This document shows positions 3,517 through 35,919 of a stretch of 59,927 nucleotides of DNA, piece after piece; the first letter of the stretch is position 1, and every line of letters begins with the position of its first letter. Both the position numbers and the translations under genes were made by a program. The DNA comes from a virus (Duplodnaviria; Caudoviricetes). The stretch covers positions 1-59,927 of IMG/VR virus record IMGVR_UViG_3300032330_000885. One strand, 5' to 3'. The notes beneath the pieces were generated by a model. The model saw only the letters and a list, made by a program, of their open reading frames with translations. It had not been told where the DNA came from and did no database searches.

Positions 3517-3756
3517 TCAGCAATCCCACTTCCGTAAAGACTTATTAATGCGGCTGTCTGGATCAGCGGCCTTGGCCGAACCCGTCAACTTCCGCTTCAT
3601 GCCAGTCATTCTAGCACAGAAACTGTCTTTGCGCGAACCACCTTCTGGCTGTGGCCGCTTTATATTATGTCCCTCAGCCTTCAACGATGCTCGGCCCTTG
3701 TCATTCAGGCCACCGCTCGGAGACTTACCTTCTTTGCGCGTCCATGCACCAGACAT
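3517..3756 (-). CDS. Small basic conserved phage protein
   Basis: AWTRKEGK..GGLN.KGRAS...SFCARM...SRINKSLRKWDC, a motif set I recognise from aquatic phages. Confidence 0.75.
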   Translation of the reverse strand: MSGAWTRKEGKSPSGGLNDKGRASLKAEGHNIKRPQPEGGSRKDSFCARMTGMKRKLTGSAKAADPDSRINKSLRKWDC

Positions 3757-3768
3757 AATACCCCCCAT

Positions 3769-3800: not shown

Positions 3801-4061
3801 TTACTTACCGCTAAAGCCAGGGCGCATGGTTCCGCTTGCAGCAGAAGACATAACGCTACCACCCGACTTGCGTGGCATACGGCCTGCATGGGCAGAAGAC
3901 ATTACGCCTTTTGCTTTGCCGACCGACTTTTTGGCTTTACCGCCGCTTTTGAAGCCGTCCTTCATATCATGAAGTTCCTTCGCAGCATTGGAATTACCAC
4001 CAGCATAGGCAGTGCCCACTGGCTTATCCTTGGCTTTCACGCCGACTTGTTTACCCTTCAT
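3801..4061 (-). CDS. Small Lys/Gly-rich protein with xKSGG motifs
   Basis: 86 aa; FKSGGKA and RKSGGSV; GGAGG RBS upstream. Confidence 0.75.
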   Translation of the reverse strand: MKGKQVGVKAKDKPVGTAYAGGNSNAAKELHDMKDGFKSGGKAKKSVGKAKGVMSSAHAGRMPRKSGGSVMSSAASGTMRPGFSGK

Positions 4062-4600: not shown

Positions 4601-5062
4601 TTATCCGAGATGGTAAGTCAGATATTGTATAGCGGCAAGAAGAACCTTAGGATCATCTTTCAGCTTTCCAATTCCTGTATTGCAATCAGAACACAACAAC
4701 CCTCTGATTCCGCCAGATTTATGGCAATGATCAACGGCAAGAGCTTTAACCTTACCCAATCTGGTAGCTGTCTCAGGTTGGTTACAGATTGCACAAAGGC
4801 CGTTTTGAGATTGAAGCAATTCAGAATACCTTTCTGGGGTAATTCCAAATTTTCTTTTTCTCTCGCCATCGCTTAGTGCTTTTCTGTTTTCTTCCCGATA
4901 CTGCTTTTGCCAACCACGCAGCTTTCCAAGTCTATCAGGATTATTTTTTATGCGCTCTGTCGAGCGTTTTTGAATAACCTTGATTTTTTCTGGGTTTTCC
5001 CTGCGGTATTTTGCAGTTCTTTCCCTGTCTTTTCGTCTGCGCTCATCAAGAGTATGTGTCAC
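4601..5062 (-). CDS. Endonuclease VII-family (His-Me) free-standing homing endonuclease
   Basis: Q.G.CAIC...LAVDHCH.SG.IRGLLCSDCNTGIG motif; basic helical N-terminus; inserted after the capsid gene. Confidence 0.88.
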   Translation of the reverse strand: MTHTLDERRRKDRERTAKYRRENPEKIKVIQKRSTERIKNNPDRLGKLRGWQKQYREENRKALSDGERKRKFGITPERYSELLQSQNGLCAICNQPETATRLGKVKALAVDHCHKSGGIRGLLCSDCNTGIGKLKDDPKVLLAAIQYLTYHLG

Positions 5063-5124: not shown

Positions 5125-6036
5125 TTAGCTTGGGAGCGATCCCCAAATGGACCGCCAATTATAATATCCAAAAGAGTAACGCTCGTAGCCCTTAACCAGC
5201 AAGTTATCTGTCGTAAAATCGACTGACATATCAGTTTCAAATTTGACACGCTCCATATAGGAGAGACCGTCAATATTCGTAAGCAAGAACCAAGCAGTTG
5301 CAGAGGTCAGATAGTCGTTGACCATGTAACCTTCAGGTAAACCACCTGCGGTTGTCATAATGGCGTTGACATCGTTGTCTGAGGTACCTGGGCGCAATTC
5401 AGTCTTAAGAAGACGGATTGCAATAGGTTCCAACTGCGGAGGCACAACCAACTTACGGCCACGAGCGAAGACCTTCAGGCCCGCCTGATCGCGGAAGTTG
5501 GTACGGATTGCAATCATACCAGCCAGCAGGGACGACTCGTTCAAGTCGATCTGAGTAGCAGGAGTGTTTGGAATCACACCGCCGTCGATAGGGTGGGATG
5601 CCGAAATCAGAGCCACACCGTCACCGCCGACCGAGGCGTTGTAGGTGGTGGATGTGTTCAGCACGTTCGCGCCGTAGATTTCCTTGGTCTGGGAGAAGCT
5701 CTCCATCAGGCCGAGGTTCGATGGCTTGAACTGGGTTTTGTACAGGTTGTCGTCAACAGCTTTACGAGTGATCGCATAGCCGAGGCCGATTTCTGTATGC
5801 TCTTGGTTGTAGACGTAACGCTCGCCAGCCGAGTTATCGAAAGCGGTCTGACCACCTTCGGTTTTCAACTGAGCATAACCAAGGAAGCGCATTTCAGCGG
5901 TGCGTTCCAGAGCCATTTTCGAGTCGTGCTTGGTGAAGATTTTGTCGTACTGGGCAGGAATCTGCTCGTACTTGCCTTCAATTCCACGGAGGCCGGGGAG
6001 CAGAAGGTCTTTAATGGCACTAAGATTAACAGCCAT
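5125..6036 (-). CDS. Major capsid protein
   Basis: 303 aa; LLPGL N-terminus, DGVALISASHP, ERYSFGYYNWR C-terminus; follows the scaffold region. Confidence 0.92.
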   Translation of the reverse strand: MAVNLSAIKDLLLPGLRGIEGKYEQIPAQYDKIFTKHDSKMALERTAEMRFLGYAQLKTEGGQTAFDNSAGERYVYNQEHTEIGLGYAITRKAVDDNLYKTQFKPSNLGLMESFSQTKEIYGANVLNTSTTYNASVGGDGVALISASHPIDGGVIPNTPATQIDLNESSLLAGMIAIRTNFRDQAGLKVFARGRKLVVPPQLEPIAIRLLKTELRPGTSDNDVNAIMTTAGGLPEGYMVNDYLTSATAWFLLTNIDGLSYMERVKFETDMSVDFTTDNLLVKGYERYSFGYYNWRSIWGSLPS

Positions 6037-7328: not shown

Positions 7329-8216
7329 TTAATGCCTCGTTTCTTGTCCACGACGAACTTGTTCCATGTATTCGGCTTCGGTCATACCCGAAATCTCAGC
7401 GGCTTCTTTCTGTGCTGCCGTGAGCCGAATGGCGTTCCTGCTGGTAGAGCTTGACCCTGCCGTGCGGGATGTCGGTGCAGCCGAAGGGGCTGATCGACGT
7501 TGTGTTGGCGCAGATGCCTCTGACATTGCGTCTCCGTCATCGCCGCGAAGGCCAAGACGGTTTTCGACATAATCGAAGTATTCTGGAGTGTCAGCTTTGT
7601 AGCCTTCATCCATCGCTTCTTCGTGCGCTCTGGTCATCTTTCTGAACAGCCGTTGATCTGTGACATATTCAGGGTGTGCACGAACCCAATCGGCAGATTG
7701 ACGCGACAATTGTGACGCGATTTGTTCAACAGGGTCCATAGGAGGGCCGTCAACACGCGGCTTCGGCGTTGTTTCCAGCTTGTTCTTGTAGCTTTCAAGC
7801 TCACGCAAGTTGGTTTTTGACTCAAAAACCACCTCATCAATCTCGGCAACCTTGTCATAGTCGCCGACAGCCATTGCCTCGACCTTCTGCTGCCGCAGAA
7901 TGTTCTGCTGCCGCTTTAGTTCGTCGATTGCACTTGCCACAAGGTGAATATTGGTATCGTGCGCGTCTGTGTTTGCCCGATTTGCATGCTCTGCAATCTC
8001 GCGGGCATGGTTTTCAGCGGCAATACGAGCCGCCTTTTCGCGGTCAAGCTGTTCACGAAGCTCGCTGATACCAACTTCAATGGGAAGTTCTTTTGGTGAT
8101 GCTTGGGCAACAGGCAATTCTTCCTGCGGCTGTTGCAAAAGGTCTACTTCTGGAGCGTCTGGCTCAAGAAACAGATCAAGTTCTTTCTGTTCACTCATGA
8201 TTATGGTCCTCACCAC
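7329..8216 (-). CDS. Capsid scaffolding protein
   Basis: Acidic N-terminus, coiled coil, Ser/Ala/Pro linker and C-terminal IRLT..Q..AA...GMT..EY helix pair; upstream of the capsid gene. The true start may be a few codons downstream. Confidence 0.75.
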   Translation of the reverse strand: MVRTIIMSEQKELDLFLEPDAPEVDLLQQPQEELPVAQASPKELPIEVGISELREQLDREKAARIAAENHAREIAEHANRANTDAHDTNIHLVASAIDELKRQQNILRQQKVEAMAVGDYDKVAEIDEVVFESKTNLRELESYKNKLETTPKPRVDGPPMDPVEQIASQLSRQSADWVRAHPEYVTDQRLFRKMTRAHEEAMDEGYKADTPEYFDYVENRLGLRGDDGDAMSEASAPTQRRSAPSAAPTSRTAGSSSTSRNAIRLTAAQKEAAEISGMTEAEYMEQVRRGQETRH

Positions 8217-8602
8217 ACTTGATCAGGGTCAGGAATGCGGACCCGAACGCTTATATCGTCGATAATCCGGCAAAGAACGCCGTTAATTGTAATGTTCCAG
8301 CCGTCAGACGGGCGAAACACTACCCACTCGTGGTTATCGACGGACATACCGTCAAACCACTTGCCTTCAGGGTCCACAAAAGCTGACGGACCTTGTTTGA
8401 CGACCAACCCAACCTTGGATTGATAGCGATCTTCCTTCAAATGCTGATCAGGCATGATGAGGCCGCTTTTTGTCTTCTCAGGGCGAAGATAAACGGCAAC
8501 CAAAAGCTGATTGTTAAAGATGTCGATGCTAGAAAGGTCGCCAATTTCATCCAAAATAACTTTTTTTGGATCGACATTGTGTTCCATTTTCATAAAACTC
8601 AT
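8210..8602 (-). CDS. groES: Co-chaperonin GroES-like protein
   Basis: EKTKSGLIMPD mobile loop and GLVVKQGP motif. Confidence 0.8.
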   Translation of the reverse strand: MSFMKMEHNVDPKKVILDEIGDLSSIDIFNNQLLVAVYLRPEKTKSGLIMPDQHLKEDRYQSKVGLVVKQGPSAFVDPEGKWFDGMSVDNHEWVVFRPSDGWNITINGVLCRIIDDISVRVRIPDPDQVW

Positions 8603-8884: not shown

Positions 8885-10798
8885 TCAGCGACCTCGTGCG
8901 GCAATCTCGGTCTTTTCGAGACGGCCCATACCGGAAGCGGCACCAGCATCCATGTCCTTATAGGACTTGTATGCCTTACCGCCGTGTTTGTGTGCAGTGC
9001 GCTTGGCAATCTCGGTCTTTTCCAAGCGGCCTAAGCCAGAGCCGGAACCTGCATCCATGTCTTTGTATGACTTGTACACACGGCCACCAGCCTTGCGCTG
9101 CATCATCTTTTCCAATCCCGCGGGCATCTGGGGAGGGCCACCAGCGGGGCCGCGCATTGGCATAGGAGGAGGACCCCCCGCGCCCGCTGGAGGCATAGGA
9201 GGAGGGCCACCTGCACCTGCTGGGGGCATAGGAGGAGGGCCAGCAGGAGGAGCTGCTTGCATTGGCATAGCAGGCGATGGCTGTTTGGGAGGCATACCGC
9301 CATTGTTTGGCATCAGACCATCCTGAGGCTGGCGCTTGCCAGTGTCAATAACGATCTCAATGTTAGTTTTGCCCTTAGCGCGACCACCTGAAGCACGTTT
9401 AGCACGACCGCCTTTTTTCAATCCAGCAGTTGATTCCTGCTCGTCATGCTTTTTGTCCTGCTTAGACTTTTCCCAAGCCATCATCGACATGCCGTACTTT
9501 TTGGCCAGCTTGGTATCTTGCATGGTGTCCTTTGCAGAACCTTCAAACGCGACCTTGCCGCCCTTCTTATAGGGCGAACCAGATGGGCCAGTGCCAAAGT
9601 TCAAACGGTTTTTATCAACCATGTCTGCGGGATTGTCTTTGTTAGGCTCAGGCTTCATCGCGCCTCCCGCGCCCTGCATTGTTCCGCCTGGCTGCATCAT
9701 AGGACCGCCCATGAACTTCTTGGCACGACCGCCCTTCTTCATGCGGTTGCCCATATCTTGTTGGCCCATCTCCGGAGCTTTGTAACCCATATCTTGGCCC
9801 GTTGCTATAGAAGGAGCTTGGTAACCCATATCTTGGCCCGTTGCACCGCGAGAAGATGTTCCCATAGATTGCATAATACGTTTCATTTCGTCGGCGTTCA
9901 TTTCATTCTGTGCAGAACCGCCGGGAGCTTTTTTTGACCGACCGCCCCAACACTTGGCTTCGGCTTTACCGCCTTTTTTCAAATTGGACGGACGCTCAGG
10001 TGGCATAGGAGCGGGACGAACGGGAGGCATTGGAGGATAATCAGAACCAGCACCTTTGCGGATTTCGTCGTCAGTCACATATTTGCCGCCAGGCCCAGTA
10101 ACACTGCGCGTGGTAATTTCACCTTCATATGGGTCACGGGCAGGAGCCTTCTTGCCCTTTACCGTGCCATCAGTTGCATGCTTTGCACGACCGCCAGATT
10201 TCATTGCATCGTCTTTTGACGCAGGAACATTAACGCCGAAACCTTTTGTCCCATACAATTTGGCCGCAGCCATTGCCAACCCTTTGGTGCGTTTGCCTGC
10301 TTCGTTTTTGAATTTGGCGTGGGTGCCCATGCCGCCTTCACCCGTGGCATTGTTGCGTTCCAAATATTCCGCACCACGTTCTGCGCCAGCGCGGGATTTT
10401 GCAGCTTTATTGGCATAATCAGCAAGTTTGCCGCCAGACAGTTTATGGGCACGACCGCCTTTTTTAAACGCGCCGATGTGCTTCTTGCCTTCGCGTTCTT
10501 CGTTGGCTTCCACCACGTTGCGGTTGATGAAGCTATCGGCTGACAAATCAGAGTTGCCACGCTTCTTCTTGTCAGCGCGTGGGGCATTAGCCGCTCCGAC
10601 AACCTTACCGCCGCTCTTGAACCGACGACGAGTCAGCGGACGTGCGCCAGTCTGTACATCGGCATTCAATGCTTCGGCAGGGGTAAAGTCTGATGCGCCA
10701 ATCTTCGTAGCATCAGAGCCGGAAGCAAGGCGAGCTGCCTTGGCTTTCATTGCGGCCCGCAATGTCTTGGAGGAATATTCAGTCATGGTAGTCTCCAT
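8885..10798 (-). CDS. Low-complexity Lys/Gly/Pro/Met-rich protein with many xKxGG repeats (putative internal virion polyprotein)
   Basis: About 14 xxGG motifs; duplicated YKSYKDMDAG...GRLEKTEIA at the C-terminus. Confidence 0.8.
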   Translation of the reverse strand: METTMTEYSSKTLRAAMKAKAARLASGSDATKIGASDFTPAEALNADVQTGARPLTRRRFKSGGKVVGAANAPRADKKKRGNSDLSADSFINRNVVEANEEREGKKHIGAFKKGGRAHKLSGGKLADYANKAAKSRAGAERGAEYLERNNATGEGGMGTHAKFKNEAGKRTKGLAMAAAKLYGTKGFGVNVPASKDDAMKSGGRAKHATDGTVKGKKAPARDPYEGEITTRSVTGPGGKYVTDDEIRKGAGSDYPPMPPVRPAPMPPERPSNLKKGGKAEAKCWGGRSKKAPGGSAQNEMNADEMKRIMQSMGTSSRGATGQDMGYQAPSIATGQDMGYKAPEMGQQDMGNRMKKGGRAKKFMGGPMMQPGGTMQGAGGAMKPEPNKDNPADMVDKNRLNFGTGPSGSPYKKGGKVAFEGSAKDTMQDTKLAKKYGMSMMAWEKSKQDKKHDEQESTAGLKKGGRAKRASGGRAKGKTNIEIVIDTGKRQPQDGLMPNNGGMPPKQPSPAMPMQAAPPAGPPPMPPAGAGGPPPMPPAGAGGPPPMPMRGPAGGPPQMPAGLEKMMQRKAGGRVYKSYKDMDAGSGSGLGRLEKTEIAKRTAHKHGGKAYKSYKDMDAGAASGMGRLEKTEIAARGR

Positions 10799-10819
10799 GG
10801 AGGTAAACGAGCGTCCTCG

Positions 10820-12952
10820 TTATCGGCCAGTCCGATCTTTGGATAATAACTCAAGTGCGCGTTTTACGATAGGCCCACCATCAGCTTTTACGATTACATG
10901 ATTGTAGACTGGATGTTCCTTACCGCGAACTGAAATAGTGCCGACCTGATTGCCAAAAGTAATTTTTCCTTTAGTGGTTGGGCGCAACCGAGGCTCCTCA
11001 TTCCGATCTGGATATTTAGCCAAATCGACGCCTTTTGGGTAATGAGCATTTAAAGCGTAATGGTGATCATCTCCATGATGCACGGAAATAACTGTATTTG
11101 TGTCTTCGTGGCCTTCTGGAGCCTCCAACCATTTCCAACCTGCTTTTTGTTTAAACAGGTTGGTTTTGCTCATGCGGGTGCCTTTGCCCCGTGATCCCGT
11201 TTGTTCAACGGTATCCGGCGACACGTTAAATGTTGGCCGACCGCCTGGCGCAATGCCAATAGAAGCCTGTGCGGCCTTGTGGCCTGTCATGTCTTCCTTG
11301 GTCTTGGCGTTCAGATACTGCCCGCCAGCGGGCCTGTTTTCTTCAGGAAACATTCGTTGCGGCTTTGGGAACACCGAGATCGGGTTCTTGATGTCTGGGA
11401 TGTCATCAACCGCGCCACCCTGCTCATATTTGCGCTTGATATGAACATCGTTGTGGTCAAACACGACATAGTTGTAAGTTGGCTCTGCTTTGTTACCACG
11501 AGAGCCAGCATCACGGTACTTGATGCCTTTGATGCCGTGGCCCGACAGGTGCTTGGTGACATTTTCTGGCGATCCAAGACCGCCCTCATGTTTGCCAGTT
11601 AACCATTGGTAAAGGTCGGCACCACGCAAATCACTCGGTTTGCCGTCAAACATATCCTGCGCTGCTTGATGCAAGTTGTGACCACTTTTTGCAAGAGTGC
11701 GCTGCACATGCTCCGACTGTTCATTTAGTGGCTTATCCCAATCCAACATGTGGTGTGGATGTGCATTGATATGCACCTCGTACATGTGGCCGCCGGGGCT
11801 AAACTCCCCGCTTTCAAAATGTTTTTTAACAGCCGCAACAGCATCTGCGGTCATAGCTGGAGCCGTATGCCCAGCTCCATTTTTATATTTATCCAACCAT
11901 GCAATAGCCCCTTCTGGAGTGTTGTCACTGAAGGTAAGAGCCATTTGCCCAATACGTTTATGTAATGAATCTATGGAATCGGGTGCTTTAAGTGTGGGAG
12001 ATAAATCATTTTTATACCTTTTCGCCACAGGTTCATGCTCGGCAAAATATAGTCCATGCCCATATGCCTGTGCGCCTTCACCCGTGCCGATTTTGCTGGT
12101 GTCGAACTCGTCAAAGTCGTGCGGCGACCCGTGATACGCTGTGATGCCGTCTTGTTCTACAGGGCCGCCACCTTCCTTGCCAATAGCGGGCTTGGCCTGA
12201 TGCTGATGCAATGCCACAAAAATAGGGATTTCCTCGTTCCCTAATTGGTCATGCGCCATCAACCCATCATAACCCTCTTTGTGCATCTGCTTCCGCACTC
12301 GAGGGGAATACACAAGATCGTTTAGGTTCGTTCCATCGTAGTTGGAATGCTTGCTAATCTCGTCTGTGTCAAAATCCCATGAACCATTGGGAAAATTCTG
12401 CACATCAATCTTCGCCCCTGCACGGCGGGCAAGATCAATAAATTTCATTGCTCCCTCTCGGCCACGAACATCCAGAGGGTTCTTCATGCTCAATTTGGTG
12501 GGGTATACACGCGCACCTTCTTCACCGCGCCAATTCGCGTAATAATCGGCATGCTGAGGATTGGCAGCAAAGAACGCAGGAATATGAAACCCGCCAGAAA
12601 CGTCTTTGTTTGTGCCGTGATAAACAACATCAGGCACTTCTGGGTGGTTTGAAACTTCTCCGCCGTCTGCTTTGGTGATAGGTTCAATTTGTGAACTGAT
12701 TGCATCAACAATGTGTTTGGGTGCCTCTGCATCACGCCATGCAGTATTAACCTTACCGCCTGGGTCAACCCAAAAGAATCCAGCGTCACCATGATTCATG
12801 GCATCTTGTGATTGCGGAGAGACATAAAAAGAGTGGTGGAAATCCGCAGCTTGTGCCCGCTTGTATGGATGCACTTCACGGATATACCCATCATGGGAAT
12901 CAAAAATGCCTGACCAAAATTTGCGGCCTTTATGAATGGCGGTATCCATCAC
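10820..12952 (-). CDS. Polyvalent protein with two ADP-ribosyltransferase-like domains
   Basis: VVYHGT...FFA...A..YA...VYP..L.MKNPL...GYDG, and AYHGSPHDFDEFD.SKIGTGEGAQAYG.GLYFAE...GIKY.D..SR...NYVVFD. Confidence 0.75.
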   Translation of the reverse strand: MMDTAIHKGRKFWSGIFDSHDGYIREVHPYKRAQAADFHHSFYVSPQSQDAMNHGDAGFFWVDPGGKVNTAWRDAEAPKHIVDAISSQIEPITKADGGEVSNHPEVPDVVYHGTNKDVSGGFHIPAFFAANPQHADYYANWRGEEGARVYPTKLSMKNPLDVRGREGAMKFIDLARRAGAKIDVQNFPNGSWDFDTDEISKHSNYDGTNLNDLVYSPRVRKQMHKEGYDGLMAHDQLGNEEIPIFVALHQHQAKPAIGKEGGGPVEQDGITAYHGSPHDFDEFDTSKIGTGEGAQAYGHGLYFAEHEPVAKRYKNDLSPTLKAPDSIDSLHKRIGQMALTFSDNTPEGAIAWLDKYKNGAGHTAPAMTADAVAAVKKHFESGEFSPGGHMYEVHINAHPHHMLDWDKPLNEQSEHVQRTLAKSGHNLHQAAQDMFDGKPSDLRGADLYQWLTGKHEGGLGSPENVTKHLSGHGIKGIKYRDAGSRGNKAEPTYNYVVFDHNDVHIKRKYEQGGAVDDIPDIKNPISVFPKPQRMFPEENRPAGGQYLNAKTKEDMTGHKAAQASIGIAPGGRPTFNVSPDTVEQTGSRGKGTRMSKTNLFKQKAGWKWLEAPEGHEDTNTVISVHHGDDHHYALNAHYPKGVDLAKYPDRNEEPRLRPTTKGKITFGNQVGTISVRGKEHPVYNHVIVKADGGPIVKRALELLSKDRTGR

Positions 12953-15900
12953 TCATCCCCATGAAAAATCGGGTTGTGGCCAACGATATGAACGCCAGGG
13001 ATGATTGAAGCAGGGTGGGCCTTGGCCGTGCCGCCTTTGGCAAAGCTAGACCCGTGCTTTTCCTCAATGCTTTCCAGCATGCGTTCATTAATCGGCTGGA
13101 TGCCTTGGCGAAGCTCAGTATTCCCACGAAAGCCAGACCGCCCGCCAGCATTTGGCGAATAAGGGTGAAGAATTGAAGTGGACTTATCCCGCAATTGTGA
13201 TTCCACAAAATCAGGTTGCGCCACATGCCGTTCAATCAGCGGAACCTTGCCGATAAACTTACCTGGCGTGGCTACTGGATACGTTGAATGCTCAAACGCA
13301 AGGTTTTTTGGGTCAAATTCGCCTTCGTGTAGTTCCACAAGATGGTGCCCCATCATGTTTCCCGAAACCGAAAGCATTTCTGGGTCGGTTATGGCAGCGC
13401 GTGTAAGACCGACAGATGGGAACCCTGCGTTTTGGAACGGGGCAGATTCCAAATGCTTCACAATGGCGGCTCTGTGTGCGCCGGAAATGTTCTTGGCAAA
13501 GTCACGAGCCTTTTCGGCGTTCATAATGCCCGGCCAGCTTTCCATTTCCTGTATGGCTTTGCTTCGTGCGGCTTCATCCTTAGTAGTTTTGCCTTTTATG
13601 TGAAGGCCGGATCGCAGGCTCTTGTCAATTTTTTCGGCGGTGTCTGCACTCATGCCCGACTTTGGCACCTGAGCCATCAGGGCATCAAACATATTGTTCG
13701 ACGAATCAACTGCCGTTGGCCCCATTGGCGCAAACACGCCGTACACTGGGCCTTTTTTGGCGGCTTCACGAATATTGTTCTGCAATGCGGTCGCAGGGCT
13801 TTGAGCGTTGGCCCACACCGCACCTTCGTTTGGCTCGGTCATGTATTTGGTGCCAGCATGCAAATCAACAGGCCACGCCAACTTTTCGCCATTGATATGG
13901 GTCAAACGGCCAAGGTTCGACCGATCACCGCCAAGGGTAAACAGTGTGCCGCCCTTACCAATCCTGTGAAACTGATGCCATGACATGCTCGGCCCCTGCT
14001 GCGGGACGGCATTGCCCAGACGGTTGACCTTAGACGTGACATCATGCGCGGGCATCGACAGCACACGGTTGGAATATGCGCCGCGCTCATGCGTAGGCAT
14101 TTCATAGCTTTGCTTTACACGCAGATACCGCTGAACCATTGCGGGGTCTTCGTGATCTGGCCGCAGAAGCTCGGTCAAACGGCGTTGGTATTCTGCGTCT
14201 TCCGGCGAAACACTGCCGCCCTTGCGATACTCTTCAACTTCCCCACCATCAGCAAACGCCTTCTGGCCTTTTAACACGCTCTCTCGCATCTTATCGGTGA
14301 TGGGCAGGTGGAGCATTGGCATTTTGTTTTTTACAGAATTGATCGCAGCCCATTTTTCATCTTTGGGCATCGCATTGATTTGATCAACTGTCATGCCAAG
14401 AGCAGATGCGATTTCGTTTGTTGATTTGTTTTTTCCTTCAACTGGTGTCCATTTTGTTTCCAGTTTCACATCCTTATCGTAGCCTTTGACCAGCTTTTGC
14501 AGTTGGGTCGGCACGATCTTGTCGTAATACCCCTTCATGCCTTCGCCGCCGATTTTTAATCCGTCACCCTCTAAAACATGATGACCATGGACATTACGAG
14601 GTTGAGTCAAAAGTTTTTCTGCTGCTTCTTTTCCAATATAATCAGCAATATTTTCAGGTTTAATGCCTGATTTATCTAAAACTGTATGGCCATTGATTCC
14701 TTCAGCAGCAAGAGTGCCCCCCTGCAAATCAGGGTCATAATAAACATTATTGACTTGCTTACTCAAATCATACCGCTTGGCATGTTCTGCGCCAGGCGTA
14801 AACACTACGCCGTGATAGCCGCCTTCTGCGGCTTCTTTCAAAGCACGTTTGAGCGCAAGGTCAGTCCAGCCCTGTGTGCTGGTAACGTATGGCCCGTGAG
14901 GCGTATCCCCGCTTTTAGGCAGGTTATCCAATTCCTTTTTTAGCTTATCAATTGGCTCGTTGTAACGGGTTCCATATTGGTTAAAGGCAGCATTTTTCTT
15001 TGCATCAGCATCTACGCGCAGATGTGCAAGTTCTTCTTCTATTTTTTCACCAACTTGGTTGTATTCATTTATTTCTGAAAAACCCTGTTTAGAACTGAAG
15101 AATTTTTTGTCAGCTTCTGCCATAGCTTTTTTACGCGCCTCCAAGTATGGCGTCAGGTCTGTGGCATGTTGATCGTGGATTCTTTTAAATTCGTCTAATC
15201 GTTTTTGCGTAGCATCGGCTAGGGATTTGGTTAATTCTTTTCTGCGAGATTCAACTTCTGGGTTCTTAAACCCATGCTCGCGCCCTTCCTGTCCCCAATC
15301 GGATTGCAGTTCTTCAACGTGCAGCAGCTTTTCACCGTTTGGGCCAGTGCGGTCAGACATGCGGATGTGGGCTAGCACATTGGGTTCATTCCAATGGGAT
15401 GATGTAAAATCACCAGAGTCTCTGAAAAAAGAACGAGCGGCTTGTTGTGCGTCACTTTCTGACCAATAATCTCTATATTTGCCGTCTGGGCCTTCAAAAC
15501 CAAACCTCCCATATTTTTCTTGAATTACTGGTTTCCAAGATGGAGGAGTCTTCAACAACACCTCGCGGTAGTTTTCACCGCCTGGCAATGACCATTTTTT
15601 GAATTTCGGCGGTTCTTTATCTGAATAAGAATCAAGATATTGTCCGCTCAAATCACGGAGTTTGTTTCTTTCTTCATTTGTAAACAAATCCATGTGGTCA
15701 AAAACGGTAAACGGTTCAAGGTTGTACTTTTTTTCCAATTCTGATTCGTATCTTTTTGATTTTAACTTCGGCAAAACATTTTCGCCCAACACCTTTTCTT
15801 CCACTTTTGGCATGGAATCAACAAGGTGCTTGTGCAGTTCGTCGCGGGTAACGGTGCGGCCAGCAAAGTCAGGGTGGACATCGCCCGTATCAGTGATCAT

Positions 15901-16245
15901 GCCAGCGTGTTCAAGCTCGGCGGGCTTCACGCCTGCGTTCTTCATCATGCCGATCATCTGTTCGGCTGGGCCTTTGCTCTGCTGCAACTGGCCCGCGACC
16001 TCTGCGGCGTGGCTGTACAAGCCAGAAGGAGCCACCACACGCGGCTTTGGAGCGAACACCGAACCCTGCGTGGTGTTCTTGGGTGTTGCTTCTGCCACAG
16101 GAGGAGCCGCTGGAGCAGGGTTGTCCATGCGCTGCTGCACAACTTGCTTGGCAAGATCAAGAGGGGCATCTGCGCCCCCGCCTGACTTGTGTGTACGAAG
16201 GTGATCGCCAATAAGATCAAGAGCGCGGAGGACAACCTTTGACAT
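12949..16245 (-). CDS. Large polyvalent-type protein (EExQSDW domain plus a second unknown module)
   Basis: LPGGENYREVLL, SHWNEPNVLAHIR, HVEELQSDWGQ and GMKGYYD motifs; directly after the portal gene. Confidence 0.75.
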   Translation of the reverse strand: MSKVVLRALDLIGDHLRTHKSGGGADAPLDLAKQVVQQRMDNPAPAAPPVAEATPKNTTQGSVFAPKPRVVAPSGLYSHAAEVAGQLQQSKGPAEQMIGMMKNAGVKPAELEHAGMITDTGDVHPDFAGRTVTRDELHKHLVDSMPKVEEKVLGENVLPKLKSKRYESELEKKYNLEPFTVFDHMDLFTNEERNKLRDLSGQYLDSYSDKEPPKFKKWSLPGGENYREVLLKTPPSWKPVIQEKYGRFGFEGPDGKYRDYWSESDAQQAARSFFRDSGDFTSSHWNEPNVLAHIRMSDRTGPNGEKLLHVEELQSDWGQEGREHGFKNPEVESRRKELTKSLADATQKRLDEFKRIHDQHATDLTPYLEARKKAMAEADKKFFSSKQGFSEINEYNQVGEKIEEELAHLRVDADAKKNAAFNQYGTRYNEPIDKLKKELDNLPKSGDTPHGPYVTSTQGWTDLALKRALKEAAEGGYHGVVFTPGAEHAKRYDLSKQVNNVYYDPDLQGGTLAAEGINGHTVLDKSGIKPENIADYIGKEAAEKLLTQPRNVHGHHVLEGDGLKIGGEGMKGYYDKIVPTQLQKLVKGYDKDVKLETKWTPVEGKNKSTNEIASALGMTVDQINAMPKDEKWAAINSVKNKMPMLHLPITDKMRESVLKGQKAFADGGEVEEYRKGGSVSPEDAEYQRRLTELLRPDHEDPAMVQRYLRVKQSYEMPTHERGAYSNRVLSMPAHDVTSKVNRLGNAVPQQGPSMSWHQFHRIGKGGTLFTLGGDRSNLGRLTHINGEKLAWPVDLHAGTKYMTEPNEGAVWANAQSPATALQNNIREAAKKGPVYGVFAPMGPTAVDSSNNMFDALMAQVPKSGMSADTAEKIDKSLRSGLHIKGKTTKDEAARSKAIQEMESWPGIMNAEKARDFAKNISGAHRAAIVKHLESAPFQNAGFPSVGLTRAAITDPEMLSVSGNMMGHHLVELHEGEFDPKNLAFEHSTYPVATPGKFIGKVPLIERHVAQPDFVESQLRDKSTSILHPYSPNAGGRSGFRGNTELRQGIQPINERMLESIEEKHGSSFAKGGTAKAHPASIIPGVHIVGHNPIFHGDE

Positions 16246-18551
16246 CAGCCTTCTTCCTTCAGTTCACTCACGAATTTCGGGTCCAGCATCTGCTCGGCAA
16301 GCGGTGTCGACTGCGGGTCTTTGATCAAATCGCGCACAATACCCGCATATGCCACCCGTTCGCGGGCCTCACGGTCTGCCGCACGGTTCTGAGCATCCAT
16401 GCTAACGTCCCTAGACTGCAATTCCAGCTTATTGCGCTCGTTCTCCAGTGCCGCCAGCTTCAATTGGTTGTCCACAGGGTCTTTTTGTGCCGCTGGCTGC
16501 TGCATTTTGGCCATTTGTGCTTGTGCCAGCATCATTTTGGTCTGCGAATCAGCCTGATCCACCTGCACCTTGGCTTGTACGGCCATTGTTTTGGCATCAG
16601 CTTCCTGCTTTTTGATCTGCATCTGGGCCATAGCCTGTTGCATTTCAGGTGGCATGCGGCCCTGCGCCTCTGGAGGTGCCATAAACTGGTCTGGGTTGTT
16701 CCAGCCGATGGCCTTCAGTGCCGCCTTATCAATGGCAATCGGGTCATACATGGTTGGATTGGACGCCTGAAGCTGTTTCAGGGCCATAATTTTCATGATT
16801 CGCTGTGCATGCGAGGCCGTATTGGGGTCTGCCTGCGGGATCAGCTCGTAATCGTTGCAAGCCTGCAAGAATGTCTGCTCGTCCCACGGGTGCGCTGGCT
16901 TGCGAATGCGCTGCCAGAAGCTCTCAGGGTTTTCCTTGAAGCATTCCAACAGCAACTGGAACTCATCGGCCTGCGATGCATGCATGCGCTTGTGAACCGA
17001 GTTCAACACCTTGGTGGCCTGCTCAATCATTGCCAGTGTGGTGCCGACAGGAGCGTCTGCGCGGCCTTCACCGACAGCCTGCTCGGACGTTCCACCAAGC
17101 CGCATGCCTGTTTCGGCCATGTTGGTAACCAGATTCATCAGGCCAGCACCAGCTTCCTTGTACGGGAGCGGCATGATCGCCTGATTGATCGGCATCCCGC
17201 CCGTCTTGACAAGCGCAGCCCCGCCTGGCGGTACACGGAAAATGTTGGTGTTCTGCCGCCCGCCCGTGTCAGCCATAAGGAAGCCAGGGAAGTTGGCAAA
17301 CATGCCCGCATCCAGCATCTCGCGCCACGCTGCCGTCACGGCATTGGTGGTGTTGCCGAGGATGTGCAGCAGGCCGATGTCATAGAACCCCATGCCTGGC
17401 ACGAAGGTGTATTTGACAAACGTGGACTTGGCGACAGGCAGTTCCTGATCGTCCTCGGCATAGTTGCGGACCACGGACAGAATCTTCTTGGTCGAAACGT
17501 CAATGGTCACGCGGTACGGGATTTCCAAACCGGACACCTTGCGCTTGTGCTTATGCTCGTAGCCATGGATATCCAGTTCGCAATAGCACTCGTAAATCTC
17601 GCGGTCGCGGTCATCTTGATTGAACGAATCGGTCGAAATGCCCTGCTGTGCGCTCTTGGCCATTTGGACGGCATCAAGGTTTGGCATGTTTGGGGTGGAC
17701 AGGTCGGTATCACGATACGCGCCAATGATCTGCATGCGCTTGACCACGGACGGGCGCATCATAATGCGGTGCGTAATGCGCTTGGCATTACTCAGATCGG
17801 TGGCCGAGTTATTCACAATCAAATCGTCGGCATCCACCGTCTCGGACACGGGGCGGTTGCGGAGCGGGCAGTAGTAGACCTTCTTGAACGCCGTACCGCC
17901 GAACCCCAGCATAAACAGCATGCGGTCGGTGTCGGGGTAGTATTCCTTCGCCACCGCCGTCAGGTAGTGGTTCATGTCGTTTTCAAGCGCGTCACCGAGC
18001 TGGTCTTCTTGCAGGTTTGCGCTGTTGTTGTCGTTGCGAATTTTCACTGGCCCATCAACAGGCAGCATTTCCGAACGGGCATTGGCCTGAAACCGCAACA
18101 CGGCTTCCAGCAGCAGCGGGTGCCTGATTTTCGACATGCCCTCGACGGGTGCGCCGTCTGCCGCGCCTTGCAGGCCTGGCAATTCGATCTTCAATCCCAA
18201 CAGTTTAATGCCCTGAGCGCGATCCTCGACCCACTCTTGGCGGCTCTGGATGTCGTCATCAATGCCACGCATCAGGTCTTCGGCGATCATTGACAGTTCG
18301 CCCTCGTCGATGTCGTCTACGAGGTTATCAAACCAGCCTGTCGGTTCTTTCTTTGCATCTGGGTCAATCGACTTGCCGTCCATCGAAATGGTGACCGACC
18401 CGTCATCGTGCTCGATGCGGATCAATTCGCCCTTGTCGTTGTACTGCTTGTTGCCTGCGGCCTGCTTTGGCTGTGGCAGATCGGAAAAATCCAGATCAGG
18501 CTCTTGGCCTTCCTCAACCTTACGGATATTGCCAAACGACAGACCAGCCAT
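16245..18551 (-). CDS. Portal protein (P22-like)
   Basis: HPLLLEAVLRFQA, GTAFKKVYY, GFYDIGLLH and APVGTTLA motifs; Gln-rich C-terminal coiled coil. Confidence 0.9.
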   Translation of the reverse strand: MAGLSFGNIRKVEEGQEPDLDFSDLPQPKQAAGNKQYNDKGELIRIEHDDGSVTISMDGKSIDPDAKKEPTGWFDNLVDDIDEGELSMIAEDLMRGIDDDIQSRQEWVEDRAQGIKLLGLKIELPGLQGAADGAPVEGMSKIRHPLLLEAVLRFQANARSEMLPVDGPVKIRNDNNSANLQEDQLGDALENDMNHYLTAVAKEYYPDTDRMLFMLGFGGTAFKKVYYCPLRNRPVSETVDADDLIVNNSATDLSNAKRITHRIMMRPSVVKRMQIIGAYRDTDLSTPNMPNLDAVQMAKSAQQGISTDSFNQDDRDREIYECYCELDIHGYEHKHKRKVSGLEIPYRVTIDVSTKKILSVVRNYAEDDQELPVAKSTFVKYTFVPGMGFYDIGLLHILGNTTNAVTAAWREMLDAGMFANFPGFLMADTGGRQNTNIFRVPPGGAALVKTGGMPINQAIMPLPYKEAGAGLMNLVTNMAETGMRLGGTSEQAVGEGRADAPVGTTLAMIEQATKVLNSVHKRMHASQADEFQLLLECFKENPESFWQRIRKPAHPWDEQTFLQACNDYELIPQADPNTASHAQRIMKIMALKQLQASNPTMYDPIAIDKAALKAIGWNNPDQFMAPPEAQGRMPPEMQQAMAQMQIKKQEADAKTMAVQAKVQVDQADSQTKMMLAQAQMAKMQQPAAQKDPVDNQLKLAALENERNKLELQSRDVSMDAQNRAADREARERVAYAGIVRDLIKDPQSTPLAEQMLDPKFVSELKEEG

Positions 18552-18552
18552 G

Positions 18553-18762
18553 TTATTTCCCTTCAGCGGCGAGAAGAGCTTCAACCTCGGCTACAAACCG
18601 TTGAATACCCTGCTGTGCGGCCATTGTATCTGATTTTGCCTGAATTTCATAGATGCGAACGTAATCATTAGGAGCCACGCCCCAAACTTCAACTTTAAAC
18701 AACCCAAGACCCTTTGGGGTCGCGGCGTTAATAACGTCCACTACAGCATTTGCTAATATCAT
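18553..18762 (-). CDS. Hypothetical protein
   Basis: 69 aa; AAGGAG RBS; abuts the portal gene. Confidence 0.7.
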   Translation of the reverse strand: MILANAVVDVINAATPKGLGLFKVEVWGVAPNDYVRIYEIQAKSDTMAAQQGIQRFVAEVEALLAAEGK

Positions 18763-21322: not shown

Positions 21323-22924
21323 CTATATTGGGTAGAGCGGCGCAGGCTCGGCACCGAAGTGCGTCATCGACCGCTCAAGGTCTGCGTTGATCTCGTCAGC
21401 GCGTTGTAGCATGCCAGTTGTGCGCAGGAACTTCAATGCCTGAGTGCTTGTATCCACAAGATCGTCGTGCTTCGCCTTCGGGAACGCGGCGCATTGGTTA
21501 ATCACCATGTCGGCCCATGATTTGTCCGGCGCGTAGACCAGCCCCTCGCTGAACAGATGCTGGACGGCATAGGCGCGGGCCACCTTGTCCTGTGCGCCAG
21601 GGTTGACCAGTTGCACCCCGAAGTCCGCACTGTTGTTGAGCCGCCTGATTTCTTGCGCCACCGAGATGCCCGATGCCTTGGACTCGATCAGGAGCGTATC
21701 CAGTTTGAACTGTTTGGCCGTCTCGGTGATCTTGGCCACCAGCTCGTGCAGCTCCAGCCTCTCGGCCCACGCGTAGAGCAGGATGGCCTTCGGGTGCGGC
21801 TGCTTGTACGACCGCTCGACCACATACGACTTGCCGTCCTTGGCCAATTGGTTTGCGGCCTGTGCGATGGGGTCTTGCGAGAAGATGCCCCAGACCGTCA
21901 TGGCCGAGGGGTCGTTCTCCTCTTTGGTCGTGTACGCCGTGTCGAGCGAGCCGACGATGTAATCCAGTGGCGGGAACAGATCGCTGTCCCATAGCTGCCA
22001 CCACGCGCTTTGGATGATGCCGCCACCACGCGGAGCGGGCGACTGCTGGAACTGGCCGGACGAGGCGTATGGCCCCATCACGCGCTCGTCGCGCTCGACC
22101 ACATCGAGGGGAAACCGTTTCGGGAACAGCAGTTCGCCTTCGTCCTCGCGTGGGTCTTCGTAGCCCAGTTTGGTCGGCATGGCGCGGGATGGATCGTACC
22201 GCATCGGCAGCATGATGTGATCGTAGCCAAGCTCTTTGTCGAGGATCACGCCGGAGATGTCCTCCTCATGCAGCCTTTGCATGATCACCACGATTGCGGA
22301 TTTCTTGGGGTTGTTAAGGCGGCTAGGGACGGCTTCGAGAAAAGTTTCGACCTCGGCACCACGTTGCGTCTCGGAGGCCGCAGAATCGACGCTATGTGGG
22401 TCGTCGATGATCACGCGGTCTCCACGGATACCAGTGAGGGACGTAATGGCGGTGGCGATTCGGAAGCCCTGCGCCTCGTTCACGAAGTTCAGCTTCTCGT
22501 TCTGATCCTTGGCCAGTTTTACTCGGTCGCCCCATCGCTCCTGATACCACGGGCTGGTGATCAACTGACGCATGCGGCGGCTGTCGCGGGCTGACAGGTT
22601 CTCGATCTTGTGGGCGGCGCAGACATAGCGCAGATGCGGCATGTTACGCGGCCCCCACTCCCACGAGGGCCAGAAGACGTTCAGGAGCAGGCTCTTCATC
22701 AAGCCGGGCGGGATGTTCACCAACAGACGATTGTAGGGCTTGCCGTCGATCTCTTCGCCATTGGTGATGGCTTCCAGATGGTCGCAGATGAAGTCGATGT
22801 GCCAGCCGTGATCGTATGGCTGACCCGGTTCAATCACATGCCACGCCTTACGCACAAAAGCGGCCAGTGATCTCTCACAAGCCGCTTTGTCTGCTGATAG
22901 TGCAAGGATGCTAATCTTGTCCAT
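21323..22924 (-). CDS. terL: Terminase large subunit
   Basis: NIPPGLMKS Walker A, IIDDPH Walker B, IMQRLHEED, DTAY and HDDLVD nuclease motifs. Confidence 0.95.
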   Translation of the reverse strand: MDKISILALSADKAACERSLAAFVRKAWHVIEPGQPYDHGWHIDFICDHLEAITNGEEIDGKPYNRLLVNIPPGLMKSLLLNVFWPSWEWGPRNMPHLRYVCAAHKIENLSARDSRRMRQLITSPWYQERWGDRVKLAKDQNEKLNFVNEAQGFRIATAITSLTGIRGDRVIIDDPHSVDSAASETQRGAEVETFLEAVPSRLNNPKKSAIVVIMQRLHEEDISGVILDKELGYDHIMLPMRYDPSRAMPTKLGYEDPREDEGELLFPKRFPLDVVERDERVMGPYASSGQFQQSPAPRGGGIIQSAWWQLWDSDLFPPLDYIVGSLDTAYTTKEENDPSAMTVWGIFSQDPIAQAANQLAKDGKSYVVERSYKQPHPKAILLYAWAERLELHELVAKITETAKQFKLDTLLIESKASGISVAQEIRRLNNSADFGVQLVNPGAQDKVARAYAVQHLFSEGLVYAPDKSWADMVINQCAAFPKAKHDDLVDTSTQALKFLRTTGMLQRADEINADLERSMTHFGAEPAPLYPI

Positions 22925-32284: not shown

Positions 32285-32717
32285 CATTGAAGTGTATGGC
32301 GATCAGGCATTCCGTGGCGACTGCCCGTCCGAGAGCATGGAGCAGGTGACGTTTTTCAACCGCCTGCGCCGCCAATATCCAGACACATGGGGGCTGATCG
32401 CCCTGCACCCACGGAATGAAGGCATAAGGACGCACTATCAGGCGATGAAGGAGAAATCCGAGGGAATGACCAAAGGTGCAGCCGATGTGGTCATTGTCGG
32501 TGCCCCTGCGTTCGTCTGCGAGATCAAGCGGCGGAACCATACCAAATCTCAATGGCAAGATGGACAGCAGGAGTTTTTACATGCGGCCAAAAAAGCGGGG
32601 GCGTTCACCTGCATTGCGCTCGGTGCAGACGCAGCCTGGCGGGCTTTTCACATATACTTGGAACAGGCCGAGCGACCTGATAGCCGATGTGATGGAAGGC
32701 AGGAAGCTGATCAGTGA
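32268..32717 (+). CDS. VRR-NUC domain nuclease
   Basis: E..EQ...H..NEG.R...GM.KGA.D...EIK...Q.EF. Confidence 0.85.
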   Translation: MKFPTDIEVYGDQAFRGDCPSESMEQVTFFNRLRRQYPDTWGLIALHPRNEGIRTHYQAMKEKSEGMTKGAADVVIVGAPAFVCEIKRRNHTKSQWQDGQQEFLHAAKKAGAFTCIALGADAAWRAFHIYLEQAERPDSRCDGRQEADQ

Positions 32718-32898
32718 AGTTCCAGAGGCGATACAGTCGGCTGTTCGTTTACCAATTTATCAAAAGGCTTGCGAACTTTTGGCGATTAAGAAAGATTTAA
32801 GAAAGGCTGCGTTATACAAATTGCCAGAGGCTATCCAGCCTCTTGTAGAAGCAGAAGTAAGGAGACTGTTTGATGTATACGCTGCCCAAAGAAGGTGA
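32692..32898 (+). CDS. Hypothetical protein
   Basis: ATG start; internal PEAIQ repeat; co-oriented overlap. Confidence 0.55.
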   Translation: MEGRKLISEVPEAIQSAVRLPIYQKACELLAIKKDLRKAALYKLPEAIQPLVEAEVRRLFDVYAAQRR

Positions 32899-33525: not shown

Positions 33526-33762
33526 ATGACAATGACATATGCAATCGAAAAAGGCATTCCTACTCCAGAGCTGCGTTTCCCTCGTAAAAAATCAGCAAAA
33601 TACCCATTTGCTAAAATGAAAGTGGGTGATAGCTTTTTTGTCCCTGAAGGGAAACTAACTAGGATTTCTACATCAATGGCATATTTCCACAATCATAATA
33701 AACCTAAGCGCGTCACTGGTCGGACAGTCGAAGGTGGCGTTCGTATTTGGAGGATTAAGTGA
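33526..33762 (+). CDS. Small basic putative DNA-binding protein
   Basis: IEKGIP.P...KYPF..M.VGDSFFVP...GVRIWR, a common phage family. Confidence 0.8.
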   Translation: MTMTYAIEKGIPTPELRFPRKKSAKYPFAKMKVGDSFFVPEGKLTRISTSMAYFHNHNKPKRVTGRTVEGGVRIWRIK

Positions 33763-34160
33763 TGGGGTTCGATGCAGCAAACCCACAGGCGCATTATGCG
33801 GCCATTCGCGCAAAATTCAATAAGGCACCAATCCCGTTAAGGGTGGTGCCACCATTACCAGAGCCAGAGCATATACCTGCGCCAAATCACGTTCTGGAGG
33901 CCGAGATCAGCCGTTTGCAGGTTCTGATGGAGGGTTGCCGCATCCCGCCACGATTGCGCCTTCTGGTGCTCCCTATGGTCGAGGATTGTGACATCCCGTG
34001 GCTTGATCTGGTGTCGTCATCTCGCAAAGAATACTTGAAGGGGCCGCGCCGAAAAATATGGGCGATGCTCCAGCGCGAAGGGCTGTCATTGCCGCAGATT
34101 GGTAAAATGTTCAATCGTGACCACACGACCATTTTGCACGGCATCAATGCGACTCGTTGA
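33759..34160 (+). CDS. Protein with DnaA C-terminal (domain IV)-like HTH
   Basis: LSLPQIGKMFNRDHTTILHG. Confidence 0.85.
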   Translation: MMGFDAANPQAHYAAIRAKFNKAPIPLRVVPPLPEPEHIPAPNHVLEAEISRLQVLMEGCRIPPRLRLLVLPMVEDCDIPWLDLVSSSRKEYLKGPRRKIWAMLQREGLSLPQIGKMFNRDHTTILHGINATR

Positions 34161-35558: not shown

Positions 35559-35876
35559 ATGACCAACCTCGCAATTCTCACCGACGACTTCGCCGCTATT
35601 GACGCTCAGATCAAGGAAATGACCAAGGCTCGTGACGCGATCAAAAAGCAGCTCCTCGAAGCCGCTGTTTACACTGTCAATGCCAAGGGCGTCGAAGAAG
35701 CTGTCTTCGTAGGCACCAAAGCTGATGTGGTGATCGCCAAGACCTACCCCACCACTTTCAGCAAAGATTTGGCCCAGACCCTTCTGTCGGACGAAGATTT
35801 TGTCCGGTGCCACGCTACGGCTATCAAGCCGACCTGCACACCTCGCGTGGTCGCCAAATCCCCTGCATTCGCATAA
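35559..35876 (+). CDS. Hypothetical protein with its own promoter and terminator
   Basis: GGAG RBS; N-terminal coiled coil. Confidence 0.75.
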   Translation: MTNLAILTDDFAAIDAQIKEMTKARDAIKKQLLEAAVYTVNAKGVEEAVFVGTKADVVIAKTYPTTFSKDLAQTLLSDEDFVRCHATAIKPTCTPRVVAKSPAFA

Positions 35877-35880
35877 CAAC

Positions 35881-35908
35881 AAGGGGGCTTCGGCCCCCTT
35901 CACTTTTT
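35881..35908 (+). terminator. Rho-independent terminator
   Basis: AAGGGGGC-TTCG-GCCCCCTT followed by CACTTTTT. Confidence 0.8.
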
Positions 35909-35919
35909 GGAGAGTAACA

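Follow-up and report, generated by a model that had tools for sequence, protein, structure and literature searches.

The locus and its relatives

The 59,927-bp sequence analysed here, referred to below as the window, is the complete virus record IMGVR_UViG_3300032330_000885, with direct terminal repeats; the element under study is a short motif centred on Gly-Gly that recurs in seven of its genes. Three of these genes, encoding P0003, P0002 and P0001, fill the space between a gene for an SU10-type portal and one for a GroES-like protein (Table 1). The overall order is portal, cargo, GroES-like, scaffold and capsid. P0002 and P0003, whose genes lie directly downstream of the portal gene and ahead of the other three, are thus encoded among the late or virion genes. 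The other four genes encode the small basic protein P0006 and three putative ejection proteins of the tail gene cluster: P0004, P0005 and a protein of 1551 amino acids (aa).

A portal search of IMG/VR yielded 80 related loci. In all of them, one to four large and highly variable open reading frames (ORFs) lie between the portal and GroES-like genes, followed by a single ORF for a basic, P0001-like protein; the P0001-like gene is always the last one before the GroES-like gene, and it is present in 32 of the 34 loci in which the cargo region is complete. Among deposited genomes the nearest is that of metagenomic phage MW202675.1, with 69% portal identity, and the nearest isolates are pelagiphages, at about 34%. 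A megablast of positions 8885-16245 against phage records gave no match.

Table 1. Features of the window discussed in the text, with strict motif matches in each gene (observed / expected from shuffles)
Feature	Position	Strand	Observed / expected	Description
P0006	3801-4061	-	2 / 0.08	86-aa basic protein; motif copies at 3933-3953 and 3852-3872
Major capsid protein	5125-6036
Scaffold-like protein	7329-8216			Coiled coil
GroES-like protein	8210-8602
P0001	8885-10798	-	11 / 0.33	637 aa; basic, Gly/Pro-rich, mostly non-globular
P0002	10820-12952	-	4 / 0.12	710 aa; four modules (about aa 1-93, 101-258, 266-508, 516-688) and a C-terminal helix
P0002 motif, aa 94-100	12653-12673	-
P0002 motif, aa 259-265	12158-12178	-
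P0002 motif, aa 509-515	11408-11428	-
P0002 motif, aa 689-695	10868-10888	-
P0002 C-terminal motif and helix	10823-10888	-		KADGGPI, then helix ..VKRALELL..
P0003	12949-16245	-	4 / 0.21	1098 aa; N-terminal helix, motif, conserved N-module (aa 67-665), tandem motif, C-module, motif, C-terminal tail
P0003 N-terminal helix and motif	16171-16236	-		Amphipathic helix (aa 4-16), then HKSGGGA (aa 19-25)
P0003 tandem joint	14209-14256	-		FADGGEV..YRKGGSV (aa 664-679), between the two modules
P0003 C-terminal motif and tail	12952-13044	-		FAKGGTA and conserved tail HP..IPGVHI..F.G..; ends in TGATG overlap with P0002
SU10-type portal	16245-18584	-		No motif; stop overlaps P0003 start (TGATG)
Large terminase	21323-22924
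P0005	38025-40337	-	2 / 0.14	770 aa; tandem RAAGGRI/RSTGGKI at 38172-38216; C-terminal ..AKALAKA.. helix at 38028-38066
1551-aa putative ejection protein	40350-45005	-	1 / 0.49	PHROG 'DNA ejection protein', Peptidase_S74, VanY; not enriched within the window
P0004	45511-47382	-	3 / 0.10	623-aa putative internal/ejection protein; YADGGAI, YEDGG (twice), MARGG
P0004 GG-helix-GG unit, aa 285-318	46429-46530	-

Form and enrichment of the motif

The sequence in question is a genuine short linear motif. It opens with an aromatic or basic residue, followed by Ala or Lys; Gly-Gly comes next after one residue of any kind, and a second such residue separates it from a closing aliphatic one. The motif was counted with a strict pattern, [FYKRHML][AKERS].GG.[VIA], and with a narrower one, [FY]A.GG.[VI], and expected numbers were obtained from composition-preserving shuffles within each protein. 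The seven genes together contain 27 strict matches where 1.54 are expected, well above what their Gly and Lys content predicts. All 26 instances named in a first-pass annotation of the window have been located where it put them, and its estimate of about 14 copies in 8885-10798 is a fair one, since that gene has 22 GG in total and contains all six of the heptads quoted; the start at 47352 that it gave for the P0004 gene is the first ATG of that ORF. Its description of the motif as genome-wide was too strong, as the motif is limited to these seven genes; the remaining 54 have, when pooled, a single strict match (in 32476-32898) against 1.58 expected.

Because the strict pattern was fitted to the window genes after the instances had been viewed, the fair test lies in other sequences. 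The 87 dereplicated polyvalent ORFs of the relatives (78,288 aa) contain 205 motifs against 14.9 ± 3.5 expected. In the best 120 database homologues of the P0003 N-module there are 310 against 23.8, and with the narrower pattern 116 against 0.6, while 119 P0001-like proteins carry 814 against 36.4, with 4-10 copies per protein and a median of 7.

At the junctions the residues run Y/F, A, D/x, G, G, E/A/x, V, D/E, and in the P0001-like proteins K/R, K, x, G, G, R/K, A/T/V. Residues E, S, A and P predominate at position +2, and E and D at +4. Bulky hydrophobic residues are scarce right after the Gly-Gly (12 of 202 contexts, against a background of 13.9%), and Pro stands there in 21 of the 202, including two of the four P0002 sites. 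Motif strings searched for in the open-access literature (text without supplements) gave only primer-like matches, and no paper describing the motif was found in that literature on internal-protein processing and capsid targeting; it appears to be undescribed.

The cargo proteins P0002 and P0003

P0002 matches the Pfam family ART-PolyVal (E 1.7e-16, in two stretches) over aa 107-261, and its first two motifs flank this region, as expected from the earlier remark that the motif brackets each ART-like domain. For P0002, AlphaFold with an alignment of 35 rows gave a model whose mean pLDDT is 48.9 and which supports only the joint ahead of a confident domain at aa 270-440. P0003 has motifs at aa 19-25, 664-670, 673-679 and 1068-1074. 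Its residues 1-700 were modelled from a 34-row alignment with a mean pLDDT of 77.6, and the chain is folded from about aa 67 to 665; both motif regions in the model lie in segments of pLDDT below 50 (aa 19-63 and 666-700) on either side of the fold, so that here too the motif is predicted to sit between domains and not inside them. Among 34 homologues, P0003 residues G660, G667 and G668 are invariant and A663 is nearly so. Each domain junction of P0002 and P0003 has a copy of the conserved motif.

For the relatives, 34 ORFs drawn from 82 polyvalent ORFs of the IMG/VR loci (87 dereplicated in all) were scanned with Pfam. ART-PolyVal was found in 20 of them, a cell-wall hydrolase in seven, and LPD23, PBECR5, DUF7178 and GP88 in three each. 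With ART-PolyVal in P0002, and ART-PolyVal, LPD23 and PBECR5 in the relatives' ORFs, these are true polyvalent proteins. The genes are coupled by TGATG stop/start overlaps at 16245 (portal/P0003) and 12949-12952 (P0003/P0002). Some of the relatives' downstream ORFs appear to begin with 'MM', an artefact of choosing a GTG one codon ahead of the ATG.

The N-module of P0003 (14251-16047) is unannotated and very abundant: 1117 of the 8000 database proteins scored reach E <= 0.001, and its homologues are fused to many different effector domains. Neither phmmer nor a 34-sequence profile found anything among PDB sequences, a Pfam search likewise found nothing, and Foldseek gave no match at E <= 0.001. 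With VIA-align, the model matched coiled-coil structures and, at Z 8.5-9.9, GNAT-like ones -- among them 6edw_A (Z 9.9), 8g8k_A (Z 9.8) and the toxin AtaT, 6gtp_A (Z 8.8) -- which is taken as a lead only. In the AlphaFold model the GNAT-like core is interrupted by a coiled-coil hairpin of about 110 residues, aa 329-441. The module thus looks like a GNAT fold with a coiled coil and not like a peptidase, and its invariant residues H293, R295, D298, H309, E311 and E312 suggest that it is an enzyme.

Module boundaries and reshuffling

In a mapping of homology breakpoints made without low-complexity masking, 111 of 151 internal motif sites lay within 12 residues of a breakpoint, as against 302 of 920 other Gly-Gly pairs and 302 of 1468 random positions (21%). 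Counted from the other side, a strict motif lies no more than 15 residues away from 71 of the 202 breakpoint clusters, where 18.2 would be expected. BLAST alignments of P0002 stop at about aa 98-102, 262-270, 515-517 and 695-699, which are its four motif sites, and its four modules are found at the N-termini, in the middles and at the C-termini of different proteins. The two modules of P0003 lie in different ORFs in one relative (L001); in MW202675.1 its N-terminal half corresponds to the N-terminal half of one ORF and its C-terminal half to the middle of another, both bounded by the motif. The modules of both proteins thus recur in other orders and other ORFs, and their gain, loss and reordering break at the motif, in line with the swappable cassettes envisaged earlier.

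P0001 and the ejection proteins

P0001, for which 470 database homologues were found, has 114 Lys and Arg residues and 62 Asp and Glu.

The ejection proteins, too, are enriched when their homologues are considered: 50 motifs observed against 5.0 expected for P0004, 96 against 14.6 for the 1551-aa protein and 9 against 1.8 for P0005, with all nine P0005-type sites within the last tenth of the protein. Homologues of a neighbouring acetyltransferase-like protein are not enriched (0 against 1.9), and of 27 matches in nozzle-protein homologues 24 are one conserved site inside the fold. In the 1551-aa protein, motif-like sites at aa 500-504, 635-641, 648-654 and 860-866 lie between recognised domains. 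Its Peptidase_S74 chaperone domain is in the middle of the protein (aa 419-427, 43725-43751, with a Ser-Asp-x-Arg-x-Lys-type start), not at the C-terminus, and precedes a VanY-like domain (aa 931-1004); self-cleavage there would free a C-terminal piece of 1130 aa. The homologues of P0004 (in loci L088-L167) are mostly 200-340 aa long, and the greater length of P0004 itself is due to a central insertion that contains the GG-helix-GG unit, runs of Gly, Ser and Asp, and Pro-rich repeats.

Terminal helices and tails

Cargo ORFs that are translated independently have characteristic ends, in which the motif stands between a short terminal helix and the modules. At the N-terminus this is an amphipathic helix of the form ..ALRLA.. 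with the motif within a few residues; at the C-terminus it is the motif followed either by ..[VI]V.RAL.L.. or by a conserved tail, HP...IPG[VI]HI....F.G. Strict patterns for helix plus Gly-Gly matched 38 of 120 N-termini against 2.7% of internal windows, and 16 of 120 C-termini against 1.7%. Some fused proteins, P0004 among them, retain a GG-helix-GG unit, and the end of P0005 is built in a like manner. The N-to-C polarity of the motif is the same whether the helix precedes it, as at N-termini, or follows it, as at C-termini, which makes the motif an element distinct from the helix, a separator. The tail HP...IPG[VI]HI....G.P.F.G.., seen at 12952-13017 and in relatives L016, L035, L066, L070 and L073, is always ORF-terminal; the ORF right after it overlaps it and has no N-terminal helix, and the last codons of the tail contain a Shine-Dalgarno-like GGGGA.

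Selection and lineage specificity

At 64 [FY]A.GG.[VI] sites, the codons for Gly, Ala, Tyr/Phe and Val follow background usage, and FADGGEV is encoded in four different ways. Synonymous codons thus vary freely at the motif, which indicates selection on the protein and not on DNA microhomology. The motif is also specific to the lineage. Dolichospermum phage Dfl-JY45, a jumbo cyanophage, encodes a 2387-aa protein (locus L168, 3409-10572) with two P0003-type N-modules and no strict motif (0.51 expected), so that the motif is not tied to the fold; the terminal helix signature is missing from this protein as well. Caulobacter and Roseobacter phages with related portals have no motif, and in pelagiphage HTVC027P two large proteins, gp41 and gp42, carry a single copy apiece.

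Other genes of the window

Pfam and PHROGs also identified tail fibres, a lysozyme and an early block on the plus strand. Two paralogues of the SU10-type adaptor, at 50071-50823 (Pfam E 2.9e-17) and 2303-2995 (E 3.8e-09), are distant on the linear map; circular permutation of the genome would make them neighbours across the terminal repeat. An endonuclease VII gene (4601-5062, PHROG E 2.4e-32) lies within the head gene block, directly downstream of the capsid gene. The early ORF at 35800-36291 has the C-terminal domain of the bacterial RNA polymerase alpha subunit (PF03118, E 3.7e-15), and near it, at 33759-34160, is a DnaA C-terminal helix-turn-helix (E 8.8e-10). At 3517-3768 there is a stand-alone 83-aa DUF6321 ORF (Pfam E 9.3e-16); elsewhere this domain is the C-terminal module of large PHROG proteins, and it also occurs in the polyvalent homologues P0099, P0116 and P0117.

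Proteases and the lambda gpH parallel

The first-pass annotation had recognised no prohead protease, and none has been detected since: Pfam scans of 39 window ORFs, all but 22 small ones, and PHROG scans of 30 ORFs revealed no processing protease, several conserved ORFs having no family. Pfam found no MPTase or assemblin at E <= 0.001 in the 34 polyvalent ORFs of relatives, and no processing peptidase at E <= 0.01 in P0002 or P0003. The only peptidase families seen in the window and the relatives are Peptidase_S74, VanY and M23, which are fibre-chaperone or cell-wall enzymes. Two conserved proteins of 180 and 193 aa fell into unnamed viral clusters in the ESM Atlas, with a weak 'cement protein' lead at 0.83.

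The available text of Iyer et al. 2017 (PMC5512222) proposes that polyvalent proteins are processed by a zincin-like MPTase; the words 'linker' and 'glycine' do not occur in that text. As for lambda gpH, the available part of PMC12617516, from 2025, reports that about 14 kDa is removed from its Gly-rich C-terminal region, the site and the catalyst being unknown, and that residues from about 690 to 817 are unresolved in the structure. The motifs that had been cited as a parallel are real as sequence: gpH carries FATGG (733) and YATGG (778), and it is alone among 35 lambda coding sequences in having [FY]A.GG. By mass, a fragment of about 14 kDa would start near residue 715-721, while a cut after FATGG would give 12.2 kDa. 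Given this, and the unknown site and catalyst in that paper, the parallel is weaker than had been implied. Between P0004 and gpH the best BLASTP segment is 18 aa long and not significant (E 0.18); only the short motif is shared.

What the motif may do

The seven proteins probably form a cargo set stored in the head of a podophage: two polyvalent effector proteins, a basic disordered protein, a small basic protein and three putative ejection proteins. The account preferred here, though tentatively, takes the motif for a recognition joint that these internal virion proteins have in common and that is specific to their clade, multivalent and bound but not cut. The Gly-Gly break would expose two flanking 'sticker' residues, by which a component particular to the lineage could collect the internal proteins, retain them and let them go later. 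The P0001-family protein, having several copies per molecule, would be the likely hub, and the terminal helices would act as address tags, one set to each polypeptide. Modules flanked by such joints would remain compatible with this machinery, so that recombinants joined at the joints survive, and cassette shuffling is proposed to follow from this. Recognition needs no protease, and the failure to find one in the 39 window ORFs or in the 34 ORFs of relatives is counted in its favour. Of the earlier suggestion that the motif is a shared cleavage, packaging or ejection signal, the shared signal fits a motif confined to proteins that are likely to be capsid-internal and ejected, while cleavage at the joints is so far unsupported: the ORFs scanned in the phage and its relatives gave no protease candidate, Pro residues stand after Gly-Gly at some sites, and the gpH parallel is weak.

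Several points weigh against a recognition joint. The binding partner is hypothetical, and the virion location of the proteins is deduced from gene position and from PHROG and Pfam names only. The presence of the motif at essentially every joint, and of tandem pairs 8-9 residues apart, would suit cleavage sites as well. The cargo motifs are mostly acidic and those of P0001 basic, so that a single receptor is not obvious; a pairing of the two kinds with one another is an alternative. For P0002, whose model is poor, the joints rest on homology breakpoints and not on structure. As only 35% of the breakpoint clusters have a strict motif nearby, many breakpoints are without a strict copy, and the single recurrent site behind most of the nozzle-protein matches means that counts within sets of homologues are not independent.

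A further-reaching proposal, which is doubtful as it stands, is that the Gly-Gly joint and the terminal helices together constitute an addressing code for the interior of the phage head. The disordered basic P0001-family protein would co-condense with DNA and with the mostly acidic motif copies on effector cassettes and ejection proteins; any module bracketed by the motif would then be packaged and ejected automatically, and effector cassettes could be freely traded. In a variant of this proposal the joints would be cut, by a so far unrecognisable Gly-Gly-specific activity of the same kind as makes lambda gpH*.

That the joints are simply proteolytic sites is unlikely, though it must be taken seriously. 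An unrecognised phage or host protease would cut each of them, freeing the modules, removing the address helices and chopping P0001 into basic peptides. Processing of this kind is known for the internal proteins of T4 and the core proteins of adenovirus, and the motif has the makings of a site: it is sequence-specific, occupies all the joints of P0002 and P0003 as well as the transitions from terminal helices to modules, has small central residues and conserved flanks, and is depleted of large hydrophobic residues right after the Gly-Gly. The processing proposed by Iyer et al. 2017 (PMC5512222, in the text available) and the two such motifs in the Gly-rich region from which gpH loses its 14 kDa (PMC12617516, likewise) point in the same direction. 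Set against this are the searches that found no processing protease, the GNAT-like and not peptidase-like appearance of the conserved N-module, the frequency of Pro after the Gly-Gly, and a gene order without the usual protease slot; in gpH, whose cut site is unknown (PMC12617516, in the part available), the size of the fragment fits residues 715-721 slightly better than 737. A passive origin by descent -- an aromatic-Ala pair capping one module, Gly-Gly providing a flexible break and an aliphatic residue starting the next, all spread with the flanks of cassettes and having no common reader -- seems quite improbable. It accords with the P0003 model, where the confident fold still includes the residues just before the Gly-Gly (as far as aa 665) and the Gly-Gly opens the disordered stretch, with the conservation of G660, A663, G667 and G668 noted above, and with the expectation that recombinants are likeliest to function when joined at joints. 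It does not explain why the same flanks occur beside unrelated folds and beside terminal helices that stand bare, why a non-globular protein has them 4-10 times, why the jumbo-phage copy of the N-module lacks the motif, or why the peptide is kept while synonymous sites are scrambled.

Two other explanations can be set aside more firmly. If the conserved 21-nt stretch were a DNA-level recombination linker, offering microhomology for cassette exchange, breakpoints should coincide with the motif, and they do; the background codon usage, the encoding of identical heptapeptides by different codons and the range of the motif from FKSGGKV to YADGGEV all speak against it, and on codon usage it is rejected as very improbable. 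The chance that the motif is a compositional by-product of Gly- and Lys-rich sequence is negligible. The proteins that carry it are indeed Gly-rich (8.7-15.2% Gly), and the 1551-aa protein by itself is not enriched; but shuffles that keep the composition yield 10- to 30-fold fewer copies, which refutes chance for six of the seven genes. The fibre-like protein with fn3 and Gly_rich_2 domains at 57680-59395 (571 aa, 22.8% Gly, 50 GG) is not among the strict-motif genes, so that Gly richness does not of itself produce the motif.

Comparison with known systems

To our knowledge, the ways in which phages select, store and eject non-structural 'cargo' proteins are poorly understood outside T4, P1 and N4. 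Polyvalent proteins and terminal capsid-targeting peptides are already known; a conserved joint motif common to cargo, a basic hub-like protein and ejection proteins, together with terminal helices, appears to be new, no description of it having been found in the open-access text searched. All the predicted internal proteins of an uncultured podophage lineage that is very abundant thus bear a short, easily mutated motif with helices, which provides a testable handle on cargo addressing and on the rules for swapping anti-host effector cassettes. It would also permit giant unannotated phage proteins to be segmented automatically into modules.

Several resemblances were considered. Adenovirus protease has a Gly-Gly consensus with a hydrophobic residue two positions before it, and double-glycine bacteriocin leaders are cut by a C39 peptidase/ABC exporter. 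The phage motif is like both in having a hydrophobic residue a few positions before Gly-Gly, like leaders in its N-terminal helix, and like adenovirus cores in its basic, DNA-associated substrates. An adenovirus-type site has been rejected, since the aromatic or hydrophobic residue of the phage motif lies three positions before the first Gly, with Ala or Lys at -2, and Pro is frequent after its Gly-Gly. A double-glycine leader has been rejected too: the motif is also internal and lies ahead of C-terminal helices, and the Pfam scans of the 39 ORFs revealed no cysteine protease such as C39 and no ABC protein. In the GroES mobile loop, three consecutive hydrophobic residues come directly after Gly-Gly; the residues at +2 and +4 of the phage motif do not agree with a loop of this type. 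An RTX-like resemblance was dropped as well, there being no position-by-position fit.

Polymorphic toxins use short boundary peptides, such as VENN in CdiA and the Rhs core-end motif, to mark a point of cassette exchange, with a single constant-to-variable boundary that is tied to DNA-level homology or autoproteolysis. The phage motif, unlike these, flanks every module, is not conserved as DNA and has no nucleophile at a fixed position. In T4, a short terminal peptide, the capsid targeting sequence, sends internal proteins to the head and is removed by the prohead protease; here the signals are at either terminus, no protease was found in the searches described, and the cleavage motif differs. 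The cargo-loading peptides of encapsulins and the encapsulation peptides of microcompartments are short terminal amphipathic peptides on a flexible linker that load a protein shell. They differ from the phage elements, in which binding to the capsid is putative and the linker has a conserved motif of its own and is found again inside the proteins.

Other likenesses are with phage proteins. The C-terminal region of lambda gpH (J02459; PMC12617516, in the part available) has two [FY]ATGG, one of them after a helix-like stretch, in a protein that is ejected and is processed nearby, though gpH is a siphophage tail protein and its similarity to P0004 is not significant; the motif bears all the same on the old question of where, and by what, gpH is cut. 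The proteins described here resemble the polyvalent proteins that PMC5512222 describes from phages and from conjugative elements, which, in the text available, are large late-gene strings of effector domains (ART-PolyVal, LPD23, PBECR5, cell-wall hydrolases) beside head genes, presumed to be packaged and injected. They differ from these in that no MPTase was found in the ORFs scanned here, and that a conserved joint motif and terminal helices organise the proteins.

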